From assembly GCA_002773835.1 (NCBI GenBank), contig PFAC01000005.1, forward strand, positions 1-57,657: a DNA stretch of 57,657 nt, written 5' to 3'. Positions 25,951-31,710 of the stretch are shown here, in pieces. Within the stretch, counting starts at the first letter, position 1; each line of letters starts with the position of its first letter. The notes below the pieces were generated by a model that searched no databases, was not told the DNA's origin, and saw nothing but the letters and a program-made list of their open reading frames with translations. The position numbers and the translations under genes are program-made. This DNA comes from Chlamydiae bacterium CG10_big_fil_rev_8_21_14_0_10_35_9. GTDB taxonomy: Bacteria; Chlamydiota; Chlamydiia; Chlamydiales; SM23-39.

Positions 25951-28038
25951 TCATTTTAGTTGAGATGGTTCATTTTTTTGATAAAGATGGACATCTCGTG
26001 TTGGATATGGAATTACAATATTATTTTCTTTTAAGGCAGTTTCAATTGTCCAAAGATATTTAGCTGTTGTCGAACGGGTCCTGGTTCCTGTGGTATATTC
26101 ATTGACCCATACTACAAGTTCAAAATCAAGGCTGCTTTCTCCAAATTTCACAAGCCATACCTGGGGTTCTTTCTCTTCTATGGTTAAAGGAACCTTTTTA
26201 GCGGCCTCAATAATTATTTTAGATACTTTTTCTTTATCTGTGCCATAAGCAACTCCAAAGGGAACTCTAATCCTCCTTATTTTTTCAGACAATGTCCAGT
26301 TAGTGAATTTTTTCATGACAAGCTCGGAGTTGGGAATTAAGATTTCTAAATTGTCCAATGTTTTGATAAGAGTCGTCCTTACCTTTATTTCTTTTACAGT
26401 CCCAAGCTCTCCGCTTTCTAAGCCGATAAAGTCACCAATACGTACATTTTTTTCTAAAAGTACAATAATGCCTGCTATAAAATTATTAAAAAATGATTGA
26501 AGGCCAAATCCAATTCCCACTGAAAGGGCACCAGCAATATAGGCAAAAGCAGTAAAGTCAATACCTATTGTAGTAAATGCTATAATGACACCAACTGTCA
26601 TCATTATATAAAAAAATAGTCTTGAAAGTGTATAGATGCCAGCCTGGTTAAGTTTTTTATGCTTGGATCCAAGCCGGATAATTCCCTTTCTGGTAAGCCA
26701 CGATACTAAGTAAATAATAATAATCGTAATAAGGAATTTTATTAGGGCAAAAGGAGTAATAGAGGTCTCACCTATTTTAAAAAGCCTTTTTTCAAACCAT
26801 GAGGCATTTTCCTTAAAAAATCCGATGGTTGAGTGCCAACCTTGGGCGATTTTATCTTTAAAAGTTGCATAATGCTCACTAATAAGAAGCTTTAGCTGGT
26901 CTAAAAGAAACTCGGAAAGATATAACTCTTGTTCAATCTTTTGCAGTTGTACCAATGCTGTCTCATTCATAGTTAGAATGTGTTGATACATTTCTGTATC
27001 GACACTTGTCTGGGAAAGTTCTTCTAAGGTATTTTCCAGCTCTACTCGCGCTGTTTTTCGTCTAATCGTTTGTTCGTTTTGAATTTTTTCAATATCCATT
27101 CGCCAAACATCTATTTGTTGATAAAGAGTGCTCAAAGATATGTCTTCACTATTTAGTCCTAGCAAAACGATGTTTTTTTGGATTTGTAGATCGATAAGTC
27201 GAATTTTTTCTAAATTTTGCTGAACAAATGCATTTAATAGTTGTTGTTCAGTTACCCTATCTCGATGGGTTGACATACGAGATTGTATAAGTAACACTTC
27301 TTGTTGCGCAGCCTCGCTGTGGCTTTCTTGGGCATATAAAGCAGAATTAATACCTGTCAGGTCTTCTTTAGAAACAACTAGTACTTTTCTTGCATGTGCA
27401 ATTTCTTCTTCTAAAAATTCTTCTTCAATCTTTAAATTTTCCAAAGAGGCTTGCTGGATTTTAAGACGGATTTGATCGCTTGAAATGTTCATTCTTGTAG
27501 CAATGATTTCTAAGCCTAGTAAATACCTGGTGTCAGATGGATCTAGATCCATATATTCTGCTTTCAAAGTGTCTAGGTAAATATCTTCGCTTTTTATTTT
27601 AGAACTTTCTAAGTTTACTTTTGTGTGTAGAGCGTCAATTTTTTCACTTAAATCTTTTTGTGTATTTCCTAAAGCAATAAAGGAGGCAAGATTGTATGTA
27701 TTTTGAAATGCTGGCTTGGAAGGGGGGATAGGGGGCGTTGCTTTCTTTAAATTGCTTAATGTGTTTACAGCAATTTGGACTTTGTCCATTAAATAAGTTG
27801 ATTTTTGATAAGATGCCGAAGGAAGTTTTTCTTGCATTTGAGCAAAATAAGCCAAAGCTTTTTCAGCCCTTTTATCAAAGGCATCTCCTTTTACATCAAA
27901 AAAACTCCACCAATTTGAAGAAAGATCTGCAGGATTAGGGATGCTGACGGACTCTTGCCCTGATTCAGGTATAAAAGGGGAAGTATCAGAAAAAAGATGA
28001 GATTGGAATAAAATAAAAAGTAATAATAGCTTTTTCAT
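25951..28038 (-). CDS. Large MscS-family mechanosensitive channel (MscK-like, long periplasmic helical domain)
   Basis: Signal peptide from MKKLLL (28038; ORF track starts at 28086); GALSVGIGFGLQ..FNNF..G, IGD.I, IPNS, GVAYGTD, FG.SSLDFEL, IPYP.RD. Confidence 0.9.
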   Translation of the reverse strand: MKKLLLLFILFQSHLFSDTSPFIPESGQESVSIPNPADLSSNWWSFFDVKGDAFDKRAEKALAYFAQMQEKLPSASYQKSTYLMDKVQIAVNTLSNLKKATPPIPPSKPAFQNTYNLASFIALGNTQKDLSEKIDALHTKVNLESSKIKSEDIYLDTLKAEYMDLDPSDTRYLLGLEIIATRMNISSDQIRLKIQQASLENLKIEEEFLEEEIAHARKVLVVSKEDLTGINSALYAQESHSEAAQQEVLLIQSRMSTHRDRVTEQQLLNAFVQQNLEKIRLIDLQIQKNIVLLGLNSEDISLSTLYQQIDVWRMDIEKIQNEQTIRRKTARVELENTLEELSQTSVDTEMYQHILTMNETALVQLQKIEQELYLSEFLLDQLKLLISEHYATFKDKIAQGWHSTIGFFKENASWFEKRLFKIGETSITPFALIKFLITIIIIYLVSWLTRKGIIRLGSKHKKLNQAGIYTLSRLFFYIMMTVGVIIAFTTIGIDFTAFAYIAGALSVGIGFGLQSFFNNFIAGIIVLLEKNVRIGDFIGLESGELGTVKEIKVRTTLIKTLDNLEILIPNSELVMKKFTNWTLSEKIRRIRVPFGVAYGTDKEKVSKIIIEAAKKVPLTIEEKEPQVWLVKFGESSLDFELVVWVNEYTTGTRTRSTTAKYLWTIETALKENNIVIPYPTRDVHLYQKNEPSQLK

Positions 28039-28089
28039 GGACTTCTCCTTAACTCTGCAATATAAGAATTCAGAATTAAGGAGCAAGTA

Positions 28090-28713
28090 TTAAGCGCGTT
28101 CTAAGACTACTGGTTTATCAGCCACCACTAGATAAAAGTCTATCAGGTCTTCTTGGTAGTGCTTTTGCCATTTTACTCCGCTTGACCCTTGGAATACATA
28201 CTTGCCAAGTGGCTCAAAATGGATGTCTTTAAACCCTGTATTTTTCATCTGAGTTTTTACATCATCAGCGATAACAATATTCAGATCATTCGCTTTTTTG
28301 GCTAAAATAGTTGCAAAAGCAATTCTCCCATTTGGTTTTAAGGCTTTATAGGTGTCTTTTATAAAATCCTCAAAAGGGTGAAAGTTTTTGGGTTCATCAA
28401 CAACAAATATCTTTGTTGCTGACTGGCCTTTAAAGTCAAAGCTTCCAATGCCTATTATTTGACTTTCAGACAGGTTATATTCTTTAAAAATGCTAATATC
28501 TATGGCTGACTGATTTAAATCCAATACAAGATCTTCGTCATTTAAGTCCAAATGGTCTAATACATAACGAGTTAGGTTGCTCTCATAGTCATTTGCTTGC
28601 GCATGGGGGAAATAACTTTTGTCAAAAAAAGAATACTTATCTTGTTCTGCAAAGGACAATTGTACCCCAGTAATGAAAAATAAAGAAATTATTATTAAAA
28701 ATTTTTTTAACAT
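28090..28713 (-). CDS. Exported protein with degenerate class I methyltransferase-like fold
   Basis: Signal peptide ending SFA; LVLDL strand lacking GxGxG, LKPNGRI, M..TGF.DI, C-terminal DFYLVVADKP. Confidence 0.55.
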   Translation of the reverse strand: MLKKFLIIISLFFITGVQLSFAEQDKYSFFDKSYFPHAQANDYESNLTRYVLDHLDLNDEDLVLDLNQSAIDISIFKEYNLSESQIIGIGSFDFKGQSATKIFVVDEPKNFHPFEDFIKDTYKALKPNGRIAFATILAKKANDLNIVIADDVKTQMKNTGFKDIHFEPLGKYVFQGSSGVKWQKHYQEDLIDFYLVVADKPVVLERA

Positions 28714-28896
28714 ATTAAAACAATATTATTTAATTGCTTAATAATTATAACAAAAATTAATTTAAAGATAAAGTTAATAAAAACATTTAAATGTAAATTT
28801 ATTTTTTTAAATCAGGCTGGACAAAAAAAAATCTTGATTATACTTTGCGGGTTTAGAGGTTTATTAACTTTAACCCATTCAAGGAGAGAAAAAACT

Positions 28897-29274
28897 ATGA
28901 AGAAAAAGGATCTATTAAAGATAGCAATGATTGGATTGGCGTCAGGCGCTTGTATCGCAGCTCAAAATAATACTGATGATCTTGATTTAAACAGCTTACT
29001 AGCTATGTCTAAATGTACAAAAGATCAAAAACAAGATCGAGGATCTTGTGGTAACGGATCTTGCAGCAACAAAAGTTCTTGCAGCAACAAAAGTTCATGC
29101 AGCAGTAAAAGTTCATGCAGCAGCAAAAGCCCTTGTAATGGTGGAAGCTGTGGCAATGGTGGTTGCAATAATGGAAGAAATGACACAAGAAATAAAATCT
29201 TTGGAAGAGATACTGAAGAAAGTCAAAGTAAAAAATCAGATGATCAACGCTGCGGTAAATTCTATAACGACTAA
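28897..29274 (+). CDS. Cys-repeat exported peptide; putative MNIO (DUF692) RiPP precursor (125 aa)
   Basis: AAGGAG RBS, MKKK plus hydrophobic leader, core GSCGNGSCSNKSSCSNKSSCSSKSSCSSKSPCNGGSCGNGGC, directly upstream of DUF692. Confidence 0.8.
   Translation: MKKKDLLKIAMIGLASGACIAAQNNTDDLDLNSLLAMSKCTKDQKQDRGSCGNGSCSNKSSCSNKSSCSSKSSCSSKSPCNGGSCGNGGCNNGRNDTRNKIFGRDTEESQSKKSDDQRCGKFYND
29059..29130 (+). repeat. Four in-frame 18-bp tandem repeats encoding SCS(N/S)KS
   Basis: TCTTGCAGCAACAAAAGT x2, TCATGCAGCAGTAAAAGT, TCATGCAGCAGCAAAAGC. Confidence 0.95.
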
Positions 29275-29280
29275 CCTTCA

Positions 29281-29310
29281 TAAGGCAAAAAGGAAATCCT
29301 TTTTGCCTTA
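29281..29310 (+). promoter_or_regulatory. Intercistronic stem-loop between precursor and DUF692 gene
   Basis: TAAGGCAAAAAGGA-AA-TCCTTTTTGCCTTA perfect 14-bp inverted repeat ending 7 nt before the DUF692 ATG. Confidence 0.75.
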
Positions 29311-29317
29311 ACTGTTT

Positions 29318-30163
29318 ATGCGAAAAAATCAAAACATTAAAAATTTAGGAATCGGTGTTGGGTTAAGGCCGGTTCACTATCCGGAAATATTTGCCAAACA
29401 GTCAAATATCGACTGGTTTGAAATTATCAGTGAAAATTTTCTAATAGATGGCCCTCCCGTTAGAAATTTAGAAAAAATATTAGAAGCTTATCCTGTTGTT
29501 ATGCATGGAGTAACTTTAGCTATTGGAAGTCCTGATCCTATTGATTTTAACTATTTAAAAAAAATAAAAGAGCTGGCTCGTAAAACAAAATCACCCTGGA
29601 TTTCAGATCACTTATGCTGGGGCAGAGTTCCTGGCTCTCATTATCATGACCTTCTACCATTACCTTATACTAAAGAAGTCATTGACTATGTAGTAGAGAG
29701 GGTAAAGATTGTGCAAGATTACTTAGAAGTCCCTTTTGCTTTAGAAAATGTATCTTCTTATGCAGCTTTTCAAGAGGATGAAATGCCTGAATGGGAATTT
29801 TATACTGCCGTAGTGGAAAAAGCAGACATTTTCATGATGCTAGATGTAAATAATATTTATGTTTCCAGTAAGAATCATGGGTTTGAACCCCATGAGTACT
29901 ATAAAAATTTACCGTTAGATAGAGTCTTGCAAATTCATTTAGCCGGCCATTCAAATTACGATAAATTTATTATCGATACCCATAACAACTATGTTTGTGA
30001 TGAGGTATGGCAGATTTACAAAGAAGTGTATCCCAAAACAGGTGGAGTATCTACTTTATTGGAGTGGGATGATCATTTCTTAAGTTTTGATGATACTTGC
30101 AAAGAAGCCTTCAAAGCTAAACAATTTCAACAGGAAATAGAAAATGTATCTCCTAGATCCTAA
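29318..30163 (+). CDS. DUF692 multinuclear non-heme iron-dependent oxidative enzyme (MNIO; MbnB/HvfB/BufB-like)
   Basis: GVGLR, WFEIISEN, HG..L.IGS, SDHL.W, DLLPLP, LENVSSY, LDVNNIYV, QIHLAGH, IDTH, LLEWD. Confidence 0.93.
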   Translation: MRKNQNIKNLGIGVGLRPVHYPEIFAKQSNIDWFEIISENFLIDGPPVRNLEKILEAYPVVMHGVTLAIGSPDPIDFNYLKKIKELARKTKSPWISDHLCWGRVPGSHYHDLLPLPYTKEVIDYVVERVKIVQDYLEVPFALENVSSYAAFQEDEMPEWEFYTAVVEKADIFMMLDVNNIYVSSKNHGFEPHEYYKNLPLDRVLQIHLAGHSNYDKFIIDTHNNYVCDEVWQIYKEVYPKTGGVSTLLEWDDHFLSFDDTCKEAFKAKQFQQEIENVSPRS

Positions 30164-30968
30164 AGTTCCAGCAAATTTGCTTAAACTGCAAAGCTGGTTT
30201 GGAAAAGCCATTTCGGACACTACGGAAGGGTGGGACGAACTAAATCTTCCTGTTTTAAAAGCTAAGTATAAAAATACAGCTCAACAATATGTAAAACCAA
30301 GCAAGCATTTAACTTCAGCCCAAAGAGTTGCTATTTACAATGAACAGTACTGGCTTAGACTTATCAGCTGTCTAAAAAAAGATTTTCCTTTATTGGTTAG
30401 GCTTTTTGGAGAAGGAGATTTTGAAGATATGATCGCCAGAAGATATTTAGAAAAGTATCCTCCCAGCAGCTGGTCTCTCTATATATTAGGAGAGAACATG
30501 GCAAAATGGGTAGAAGATCATTATCCCAATGAAATAGATAAGCCACTTATTTTAGAGGCAGCAAAAATAGATTATGGATATATGCTCAGCTTTTTTTCAG
30601 CAGAATATCCTCCTTTGCAAAACTTAGAGTTAACAACAAAAATTTCTCTCCAGCCACATACCCATCTTTTTAGCTTGCCTTTTGATATTTTACCTTTTAG
30701 GCAAGAAGTTCTGCAAAATTCAGAAAATTTTTATTTGGATAATGACTTTCCAAAATTGGAAAAAGGTAATTTTTACTGCATATTATTCCGATGGGAGAAA
30801 AAGGTGGTTTATAAAAGTCTTTCAAAGAAGGAATATGAAACTCTTCAATTACTGGAAAAACAAATAACCTTTCAAGACTTCATTGAAAAAATAGATATCT
30901 CTTCCTTTGATCTGCAATCTTTTTTCGAAAAATGGTCTAAACTAAAATGTCTTTGTTCAGTACTTTAA
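30144..30968 (+). CDS. DUF2063-family MNIO partner (HvfC/BufC-like)
   Basis: L..LQ.WF, R.AIY..QY..RL...L..DFP....L.G...F......Y...YPP.S..L...G; overlaps the DUF692 stop. Confidence 0.85.
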   Translation: MYLLDPKVPANLLKLQSWFGKAISDTTEGWDELNLPVLKAKYKNTAQQYVKPSKHLTSAQRVAIYNEQYWLRLISCLKKDFPLLVRLFGEGDFEDMIARRYLEKYPPSSWSLYILGENMAKWVEDHYPNEIDKPLILEAAKIDYGYMLSFFSAEYPPLQNLELTTKISLQPHTHLFSLPFDILPFRQEVLQNSENFYLDNDFPKLEKGNFYCILFRWEKKVVYKSLSKKEYETLQLLEKQITFQDFIEKIDISSFDLQSFFEKWSKLKCLCSVL

Positions 30969-30990: not shown

Positions 30991-31444
30991 TTATGCAACA
31001 GATTGCCATCCTTCTTTGGTATCTACAAAAAGAAGAGGCTTTTCATTAATTTTATCTTCTAAATCAGCAACTGCTTTTAAAAGCATAGAAATATTGCCGC
31101 TTTGATTATTGGTCTGTTCTCTATAAAGAATGCGTAATAAAAACTCCGACGGCTTAGGTATTCCAGTTTTCCCAGTTTCCCATCGCTGAACTGCTTGTTC
31201 GCTTACTCCCAACAATTTACCTAAAGTATACTGAGACATAAGCATTTCATTTCTCAGAAATTGGATTTCTTTTTTAGATAAATCTTTTTTGGAAGTTACT
31301 AGAAATAGTCCGATAGCTTTATGTAAGCCATCAATATTGTGAATAGCAACGGCCATTCCTCTTGAGGTCGTATTAAATTTAAATCCATTTGATAAATAAA
31401 TATTATCTAAACCACATTCTGTAATGATAAGAATTTTCTACCAT
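30991..31444 (-). pseudogene. Frameshifted XRE-family HTH antitoxin (YHYxECGLxN N-terminus)
   Basis: ATG 31444 reads MVENSYHY, then a different frame reads TECGLDNIYLSNGF...AVAIHNIDGLH into HTH MSQ..LG.LLGVS.Q.V.RWETGK; consistent with a 2-nt loss near 31420. The residual ORF is 30991-31356. Confidence 0.65.
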
Positions 31445-31452
31445 AATCTTAA

Positions 31453-31710
31453 TTAAATAACGGTTACAACTTCTAAGTGATTACTTTTTACAACAATTAC
31501 TACTTGCACAATCCTTCCAGCAGAAAAACGTTTTAGTTTAATTCGCCAGTCTCCGTACTTATCTAATTTTGGGCCATCTATTCCTTTGCCATTCCTCAAA
31601 ACATCAAAAATTTGTCTTGAGCTTACATTTCTTTCGCGCATTCGCATCTGTACGTGTGGATTATCAAACCATACATTTTCTGAAATTTTAGCTAATTCAT
31701 GTGTTTTTTC
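31453..31710 (-). pseudogene. DUF4258-like putative toxin, 5'-truncated (residual ORF 31453-31647)
   Basis: Open frame HELAKISENVWFDNPHVQMRMRERNVS..QIFDVLRNG...VVTVI with no ATG/GTG/TTG upstream of 31647; stop lies 8 nt before the antitoxin ATG. Confidence 0.5.

Follow-up and report, generated by a model that had tools for sequence, protein, structure and literature searches.

A putative bufABC-type cluster with an uncurated cysteine-rich precursor family in Chlamydiales

The window analysed here, a stretch of 57,657 nucleotides covering positions 1 to 57,657 of contig PFAC01000005.1 in the assembly GCA_002773835.1 (Chlamydiae bacterium CG10_big_fil_rev_8_21_14_0_10_35_9), carries between positions 28897 and 30968 three co-oriented open reading frames (ORFs) on the plus strand that encode a cysteine-rich peptide, an oxidative enzyme dependent on multinuclear non-heme iron (MNIO, DUF692) and a DUF2063 protein. 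This cluster, from an environmental chlamydia-like bacterium, is a member of a large known class, and the new part is the family to which its peptide belongs. By analogy with characterized systems, the cluster is probably of the bufABC type (bufferin/captophorin), that is, a cluster for a peptide made by ribosomes and modified after translation (RiPP), and would make an exported, Cys-modified metal-binding peptide. The adjacency of the precursor family to bufBC is recurrent in Chlamydiales.

The enzyme pair and the precursor peptide

The MNIO gene, bufB (29318-30163, plus strand), encodes a predicted peptide maturase of 281 amino acids that matches PF05114 with an E-value of 4.3e-102 (341.3 bits against a cut-off of 25) and passes the cut-off of the MNIO_BufB equivalog model NF050167 (319.1 bits against 310), staying below the cut-offs of the HvfB, ApyH, ChrH and MbnB models (243.8 against 360 bits in the case of HvfB). 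Judged by these profile matches, the enzyme is a BufB equivalog and not a novel one, so that the new MNIO system proposed in the original prediction, which was made from the sequence alone, is not new on the enzyme side. The iron-ligand motifs had been read as intact and they are: H63, H98, E143, D176, N179, H207, D220, H222, E249 and D251 are invariant across 31 aligned MNIOs, and the nine predicted metal-ligand positions, which are presumably the ligands of MbnB, align with identical residues in the structures 3BWW, 8HCI and 7DZ9. D251, the Asp after the last Glu, is the proposed catalytic base. The site-3 trio corresponds to N175, D242 and H244 of HvfB, reported as essential in mutagenesis (bioRxiv 10.64898/2026.07.17.739211). 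Position 252 is Asp in 26 of the 29 chlamydial BufBs, and a Phe occupies it in 3BWW and in L108, a locus of the EGKCG type; this appears to match, by pattern and with FonB itself outside the alignment, the specificity site beside the catalytic Asp, for which Gadgil et al. describe Phe as the residue of the Lys-Cys MNIOs and Asp as that of the Cys-Lys enzymes of the BufB2 type (PMC13097082). A single MNIO was found in the window genome (1.74 Mb in 61 contigs, 92% complete), and neither the window peptide nor this whole genome contains a BufA2-like sequence by model NF050166.

The partner gene, bufC (30144-30968, plus strand), overlaps bufB by 20 nucleotides and encodes a DUF2063/RRE-type protein of 274 amino acids. 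It matches PF09836 (E 1.4e-14, 54.6 bits against a cut-off of 27.2), and a Foldseek search with its AlphaFold2 model (predicted local distance difference test score, pLDDT, of 94) retrieves TglI (8HI7_A, E 1.7e-7) and NGO1945 (3DEE, E 1.8e-7, template modelling score 0.71 by target); for PME1, Gadgil et al. cite the latter structure (PMC13097082). The HvfC equivalog model NF050145 is not reached (19.2 bits against a cut-off of 142), and the partner is of the PME type 1 kind, not an HvfC equivalog. The genes are ordered A-B-C, with B and C overlapping, and for bufferins the A-B-C order has been called strictly conserved (PMC12452194).

The first gene of the cluster (28897-29274, plus strand) is preceded, about 10 nucleotides before its ATG, by a directly readable Shine-Dalgarno sequence, AAGGAG (28881-28886, plus strand), and encodes a bufA-like peptide of 125 amino acids that matches the family profile described below with an E-value of 6.8e-16 and none of the families in Pfam or NCBIfam at E <= 0.1. 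Its 11 Cys residues are at positions 19, 40, 51, 56, 62, 68, 74, 80, 85, 90 and 119, the eight from 51 to 90 lying within the repeat core. The peptide starts with a signal peptide (approximately residues 1-23) that includes Cys19, followed by an LLAMSKC motif with Cys40, a Cys/Ser/Gly-rich core (50-92), the tail motif GRNDTRNKIFG and an extension of about 25 residues that ends in RCGKFYND. The putative Sec signal peptide was judged by eye (a KKK n-region, a 14-residue hydrophobic stretch and the site IAA|Q) and by N-terminal homology to other precursors; the Cys content and the position directly upstream of the MNIO gene are likewise those of a precursor. Thus, the predicted co-oriented unit of the HvfBC/BufBC kind, with a Cys-rich signal-peptide precursor, an MNIO and an overlapping DUF2063 gene, is borne out by the ORFs as well as by the PF05114, NF050167 and PF09836 matches.

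Comparison with G001, a genome of the same genus whose BufB is 95% identical to that of the window, indicates that the precursor ORF is a real gene because the first 57 codons differ only by synonymous changes (10, compared with 0 non-synonymous) and the three indels (3, 27 and 6 nucleotides) are all in frame. After codon 57, there are 7 synonymous and 16 non-synonymous differences, and the aligned stretch of repeat and core is shorter by 10 codons in G001 (the indels of 3 and 27 nucleotides). The N-terminal half of the precursor thus appears to be under purifying selection. The 100 nucleotides upstream of the gene are almost identical in G001. A longer, TTG-started ORF from 28834 was considered as the precursor and is unlikely because all homologues begin at the MKK/MNK position.

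The core contains an 18-nucleotide tandem repeat (29062-29129, plus strand; 3.8 copies, 92% matches) that encodes SCS(N/S)KS. The SCSNKS/SCSSKS repeats, which were originally read as pointing to a possible new precursor class, are found only in the window and in G001, with differing copy numbers; they are a genus-specific tandem array and do not define the family, which is conserved instead in the signal peptide with Cys19, in AMSKC, in Cys56 and in the tail. Each Cys of the core precedes Gly, Ser or Asn, and none precedes Pro or a charged residue; the core also includes three C-x4-C spacings. In the ESM Atlas model of the peptide, the core is predicted to be disordered (pLDDT 0.39); the best feature scores of that resource, 0.79-0.78, are below the level that shuffled proteins also reach, so that the third-ranked cluster, named HvfA family, is a lead only. 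Near-identical DNA is present in groundwater metagenomes (all 7 runs listed are DNA metagenomes, none of them RNA). One 320-nucleotide metagenome contig (X2, record 2) spans the repeat without a difference, and no repeat-number variants were seen in low-depth fragments from four metagenome runs, from which their absence cannot be concluded.

The precursor family and its linkage to bufBC

A single-sequence search started from the window peptide initially yielded one relative. The family was recovered by gathering, in related loci, the ORFs that lie upstream of bufB, and the profile built from 12 such peptides retrieves 18 proteins in a set of 5.8 billion sequences as well as at least 120 representative clusters at E <= 1e-3, 34 of these at E <= 1e-10. 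All these proteins are unannotated or 'hypothetical', and the two with organism names belong to Parachlamydiales and Chlamydiota. The members have in common a signal peptide, MKKDLxKLAxIGLAAGxCLSAQ, the motif (E)IAM(S/T)KC(S/T)K, a Cys/Ser/Gly core that varies and a tail, RKSAA(Q/R)KVxxG, that is C-terminal in most members and is followed by the extension in the window peptide. The 129 retrieved proteins have a median length of 106 amino acids and a median of 5 Cys (range 1-20); the motif A[MF]x[KR]C occurs in 73 of them, the tail motif in 57 and both in 42. In an alignment of 66 sequences, C40 is invariant, and C19, A36, M37 and C56 are conserved in at least 90%. The window peptide belongs to a subgroup with those of G001, P0032 (60% identical) and P0055, in which the tail takes the form GRNxTRxxIFG, apparently equivalent to the RKSAA tail with which it was aligned by our own reading, followed by the extension ending in (K/Q)RCG(K/R)F.

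None of the 66 aligned members matches the BufA1, BufA2 or HvfA precursor models. The family is uncurated and, as far as we have seen, undescribed, and to this extent the new precursor class of the original prediction stands; at the same time, it is a variant within the hundreds of unclassified ORFs reported for bufferin-type clusters (PMC12452194). When the family is compared with the chlamydial BufA2-like precursors by hhalign, the signal peptides align (probability 94.6 over 25 columns), which fits the proposal, made in the discussion of PMC12452194, that the signal peptide is part of BufBC recognition.

Several members or neighbours are very rich in Cys and Pro (L102 at 352-801 on the plus strand, P0016, P0017, P0098 and P0101), and contain CPCP or CCPTPKPK repeats along with 15-21 Cys; their signal peptide and tail are the same, and in style they are reminiscent of envelope Cys-rich proteins. 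In the precursors of L094, L096, L095 and L097 and in P0111 and P0113, lipobox-like sequences (ISSC, ITSC, LSGC and IIGC) replace the plain signal-peptidase I site, and these N-termini suggest that some of the chlamydial bufB-linked precursors are lipoproteins.

The closest BufB loci come from metagenome-assembled genomes labelled Chlamydiales, Rhabdochlamydiaceae or Parachlamydiaceae (65-77% identity), after which the identity falls to at most 55% in Acidobacteriota, Planctomycetota and others. Forty loci were scanned with hidden Markov models and, with one duplicate and three outgroup loci set aside, there remained 36 distinct chlamydial loci, the window included. Upstream of bufB, the new family is found in 10 of the 36 and a divergent BufA2-like precursor in 12 (NF050166 E-values of 1e-10 to 2e-4, all below the cut-off); in the other 14, neither type is clearly recognizable, and three of these loci are cut off by the end of a contig. 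Outside the chlamydiae, a BufA2-like ORF is present at 49 of the 70 nearest BufB loci, compared with two weak partial matches to the new family (E 5.7e-5 and 0.008), neither of which reaches the tail. Given this distribution, the older partner of this BufB clade seems to be BufA2, and the new family seems to be a chlamydial replacement. In a quick BufB tree, built without the duplicate L099 and without L105 and L106, whose BufB is short, the window is placed together with G001 and G043 (support of 95 in the Shimodaira-Hasegawa-like approximate likelihood ratio test), 18 of the 34 inner branches are unresolved, and the precursor-family label needs 4 changes, only 1 of which is forced by well-supported branches, so that the number of switches is not readable.

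In the 81 genomes of the order, an MNIO match was detected in 28, the window genome included, and a match to the peptide profile at E <= 0.01 in 20. The original prediction had named a lack of co-occurrence between peptide homologues and DUF692 as refuting it, and the outcome goes partly that way. Eight of the 10 genomes with matches at E <= 1e-9 have the peptide gene directly upstream of bufB (G000, which is the window's own genome, G001, G002, G005, G015, G023, G041 and G042); the two others are MNIO-free. Taking all 20 matches, 11 are adjacent to or near bufB, 7 come from genomes in which no MNIO was detected and 2 lack linkage, so that co-occurrence with the enzyme is not obligate across the 81 genomes. 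The weakest of the 20 may reflect signal-peptide similarity only.

The related loci vary in further ways. In L008 (3145-3927, plus strand), a Cys/Gly repeat region is fused to a BufA2 domain. A separate gene for a low-complexity Cys peptide lies upstream of bufA2 in L010 (3182-3505 and 3571-3987, plus strand), L084, L090, L091 and L093, and L098, from G042, has three different tandem precursor genes before bufB. The single-contig genome G064 (contig C1) of the same order encodes five BufB-type MNIO copies that are 50-59% identical to that of the window.

The probable product and its alternatives

The following mechanism is suggested by homology. A heterodimer of BufB (MNIO) and BufC (DUF2063-RRE) would bind the 125-residue precursor in the cytoplasm, before export, and BufB, with its iron cluster and O2, would convert some of the Cys residues to 5-thiooxazoles. 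The likeliest targets would be Cys residues before a small residue, namely, the Cys-Gly and Cys-Ser of the core, and perhaps Cys40 of AMSKC. The modified peptide would then exit via Sec, with cleavage of the signal peptide, and the disordered multi-site product would act in the periplasm as a chelator of copper or some other soft metal. The precedents are the bufferins, which carry 5-thiooxazoles and bind copper (PMC11626156), and oxazolin, fontiphorin and gonophorin, for which the same is reported (PMC13097082; bioRxiv 10.64898/2026.07.17.739211). FonBC requires a small residue after the Cys and rejects Pro or charge at this position (PMC13097082), and the residues that follow the core Cys of the window peptide are compatible with these rules.

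Among the described systems, the buf2ABC operon of Caulobacter vibrioides (BufA2/BUF_6/12Cys bufferin; PMC11626156) resembles the window cluster in having a BufB-type MNIO, a DUF2063 partner, a signal-peptide precursor encoded first and no DoxX gene, and D252 would fit the Cys-Lys/BufB2 type; in contrast to that operon, the window precursor lacks a BufA2 domain and has disordered, low-complexity Ser-Cys-Ser repeats in place of CKGxNxCKG motifs. The captophorin systems HvfABC/oxazolin, FonABC/fontiphorin and NgoABC/gonophorin, in which an MNIO and a PME1 make multi-site 5-thiooxazole copper binders, share with the window tandem short Cys motifs in a signal-peptide precursor (PMC13097082; PMC11252979), and the AMSKC motif of the window family contains a Lys-Cys dyad; unlike in these systems, the enzyme and the partner are below the HvfB and HvfC cut-offs, EGKCG repeats are absent, Asp rather than Phe stands at the specificity site, and DoxX is not a neighbour. 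The chlamydial bufBC loci with divergent BufA2-like precursors (for example, L003, L005 and L008) have BufBs with 64-77% identity, homologous signal peptides and the same gene order but differ in the core domain. The relationship to MbnABC (methanobactin) is distant (E 1.6e-9): there too, an MNIO and a partner act on Cys of a ribosomal peptide, and the same nine ligand positions align, but methanobactin has a leader peptide that is not a Sec signal, an oxazolone/thioamide product, a role in copper acquisition and dedicated export.

The category to which the window precursor belongs has been outlined by Antoine et al. 2025, according to whom hundreds of small signal-peptide ORFs, with 1-18 Cys each, stand ahead of those megacluster MNIOs that lack Buf1, Buf2, EGKCG or CxxxxC precursors (PMC12452194). 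Like their unclassified ORFs and their 'CxxxxC' and 'adjamnio-3' groups, the window gene is a small signal-peptide Cys ORF that immediately precedes a bufferin-cluster MNIO whose DUF2063 partner is a true one, and the three C-x4-C spacings of its core are a further likeness; those groups differ in being described from Pseudomonadati or in having no sequence description in the main text, which contains no word beginning with 'Chlamydi', and chlamydial members may be listed in Table S2 or Fig. S3 of that paper. The bufferin paper names Planctomycetes/Verrucomicrobia/Chlamydia only as a group holding MNIOs (PMC11626156). Our literature searches found no publications on chlamydial MNIO systems.

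Several observations weigh against the bufABC-type interpretation. The repeats are Ser-Cys-Ser, neither of the Lys-Cys nor of the Cys-Lys dyads with reported demonstration of modification (PMC13097082), and no curated precursor model in Pfam or NCBIfam matches the peptide or the members of its family. Beyond the signal peptide, hhalign aligns nothing between the family and the BufA2-like precursors, and the Cys-rich core is barely conserved, with C19, C40 and C56 being the only Cys residues present in at least 90% of the 66 sequences. Neither DoxX nor a copper regulator is adjacent to the cluster, so that nothing in the locus points to copper specifically. Metal binding alone would not prove modification, because unmodified HvfA is reported to bind 2-3 Cu(I) (PMC11252979). 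Finally, strong family members are present in two genomes without an MNIO by PF05114, G004 (E 6.6e-19) and G026 (E 1.9e-15), weaker ones are found in two more such genomes, G037 and G012, and the matches in G054 and G060 are unlinked to an MNIO gene. The completeness of G004, G026, G037 and G012 is 97, 79, 97 and 98%, respectively, and these orphans imply that the family can exist without the enzyme.

The orphan genes are located at 3929-4342 of L112 (G004:C21, minus strand), 3996-4280 of L113 (G026:C82, minus strand) and 3981-4286 of L114 (G037:C32, plus strand). Those of G004 and G037 adjoin a gene of 307 amino acids confirmed as an EamA transporter, and that of G026 adjoins an ORF of 362 amino acids; Cu-oxidase_4 (YfiH/PgeF-type) and AdoMet decarboxylase genes are near the G004 orphan, whose product contains the KSAA tail motif twice.

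These orphans, together with the EamA gene beside two of them, speak for the best-surviving, although unlikely, alternative, in which an exported Cys-rich protein would function in its unmodified state, either buffering metal or redox in the periplasm in the manner of a metallothionein or forming a component of the envelope through disulfide links. Its position before bufBC would then not reflect an enzyme-substrate relationship, or BufBC would touch only Cys40 and Cys56. The poor conservation and predicted disorder of the core, the Cu(I) binding reported for unmodified HvfA (PMC11252979) and the envelope-protein style of P0016, P0017 and P0101 are compatible with it. However, no family member matches an envelope Cys-rich Pfam family (there are two single stray hits among the 66 members), the eight of 10 strong cases directly upstream of bufBC occupy the canonical precursor position, and the window genome, with its single MNIO and no BufA2 match, offers no other candidate substrate. 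Moreover, bufferin precursor genes without a linked MNIO are known in Legionella (PMC12452194), so that the orphans do not argue strongly against precursor status.

It is quite improbable that BufBC modifies the peptide by a chemistry other than 5-thiooxazole formation or that the product binds a metal other than copper. The reported repertoire of MNIOs also includes carbon excision, macrocyclisation, hydroxylation and cleavage, the Ser-Cys-Ser context lies outside the dyads for which modification is reported, and linkage to mercury genes is described for some of the bufferin clusters (PMC12452194); on the other side, the enzyme is BufB at the equivalog level, the clade of its nearest relatives has BufA2-type precursors at 49 of 70 loci, and all the characterized MNIO-PME1 systems with signal-peptide precursors are reported to yield 5-thiooxazoles. 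A decaying relic without a current function, as might be suggested by the patchy MNIO distribution in the order (28 of 81 genomes), the stops inside the MNIO match in some relatives and the fast evolution of the core, is highly improbable given the three intact ORFs with the ligand positions kept, the excess of synonymous over non-synonymous differences from G001 in codons 1-57 of the precursor (10 to 0) and the conservation of the promoter, ribosome-binding site and hairpin regions in that genome.

Genomic neighbourhood and implications

In accord with the original prediction, no DoxX, sigma factor, protease or transporter genes adjoin the cluster, according to the ORF list and family searches of the neighbours. 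Upstream, on the minus strand (25951-28713), there are a gene for a 711-residue MscS-type mechanosensitive channel with a long N-terminal coiled domain that bears a signal peptide and, beside it, a gene for a 207-residue protein whose start resembles a signal peptide and which has no match beyond a weak methyltransferase-like one; this second gene was rejected as a component of the system, being common only to the window and G001. Directly downstream of bufC, also on the minus strand (30991-31647), an MqsA-like helix-turn-helix antitoxin (TIGR03830, E 6e-13, below the cut-off) and a DUF4258 protein (PF14076, E 2.6e-10) are encoded, likely a toxin-antitoxin pair. Elsewhere in the window genome (contigs C20, C57, C52 and C32), there are two P1B-type heavy-metal ATPase matches above the cut-off and DoxX genes on two contigs unlinked to the cluster, and an HMA metal-binding domain was not detected in this genome, compared with its presence in 14 of 14 control genomes. 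This content of DoxX, HMA and P1B-type ATPase genes gives no information on the cluster.

A 13-bp stem-loop (29281-29310, plus strand), detected in a terminator-like scan, with a weak T tail, and by folding, separates the precursor gene from the MNIO gene and fills most of the 43-nucleotide gap ahead of the latter. Its minimum free energy is -18.6 kcal/mol (z -5.0), none of 200 shuffled sequences being equally stable, and it is kept in G001, where one A-to-G change gives a G-U pair. Clearly stable hairpins follow the precursor gene in roughly a third of 23 loci, by our own reading, and so are not universal. The stem-loop is a possible attenuator or transcript-stabilising hairpin and may raise the ratio of precursor to enzyme transcripts.

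A bolder scenario, which we put forward tentatively and consider possible rather than probable, is that the family, so far seen only in Chlamydiota, is recognized in a manner different from that of the described bufferins. BufBC would take hold of the cleaved Sec signal peptide, whose internal Cys is near-invariant, and of the conserved RKSAAxKVxxG-type tail; the core could grow and shrink through its tandem repeats, by which the number of metal sites would be tuned; and the orphans would show that this scaffold can work unmodified as well. If so, the family would record how the upgrading of a thiol peptide of the periplasm by an enzyme was gained and lost repeatedly in obligate intracellular bacteria.

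The eukaryotic cells in which Chlamydiae live use copper and oxidants against bacteria, and bufferin-type metallophores are a recently recognized, very widespread copper defence that, to our knowledge, has been studied almost only in Pseudomonadota. The part in resisting host copper stress that the original prediction gave to the product is a candidate role, proposed by analogy. About a third of the sampled genomes of the order (28 of 81) carry bufBC, with at least two unrelated precursor types. This makes these genomes natural material for asking what BufBC recognize, the signal peptide, the tail or the core, and how far they tolerate different residues flanking the Cys, and the compact three-gene system suits expression in E. 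coli. The practical gain is modest, in that the family profile could name roughly a hundred 'hypothetical proteins'. The orphan peptides without an enzyme raise the question of whether the modification matters.

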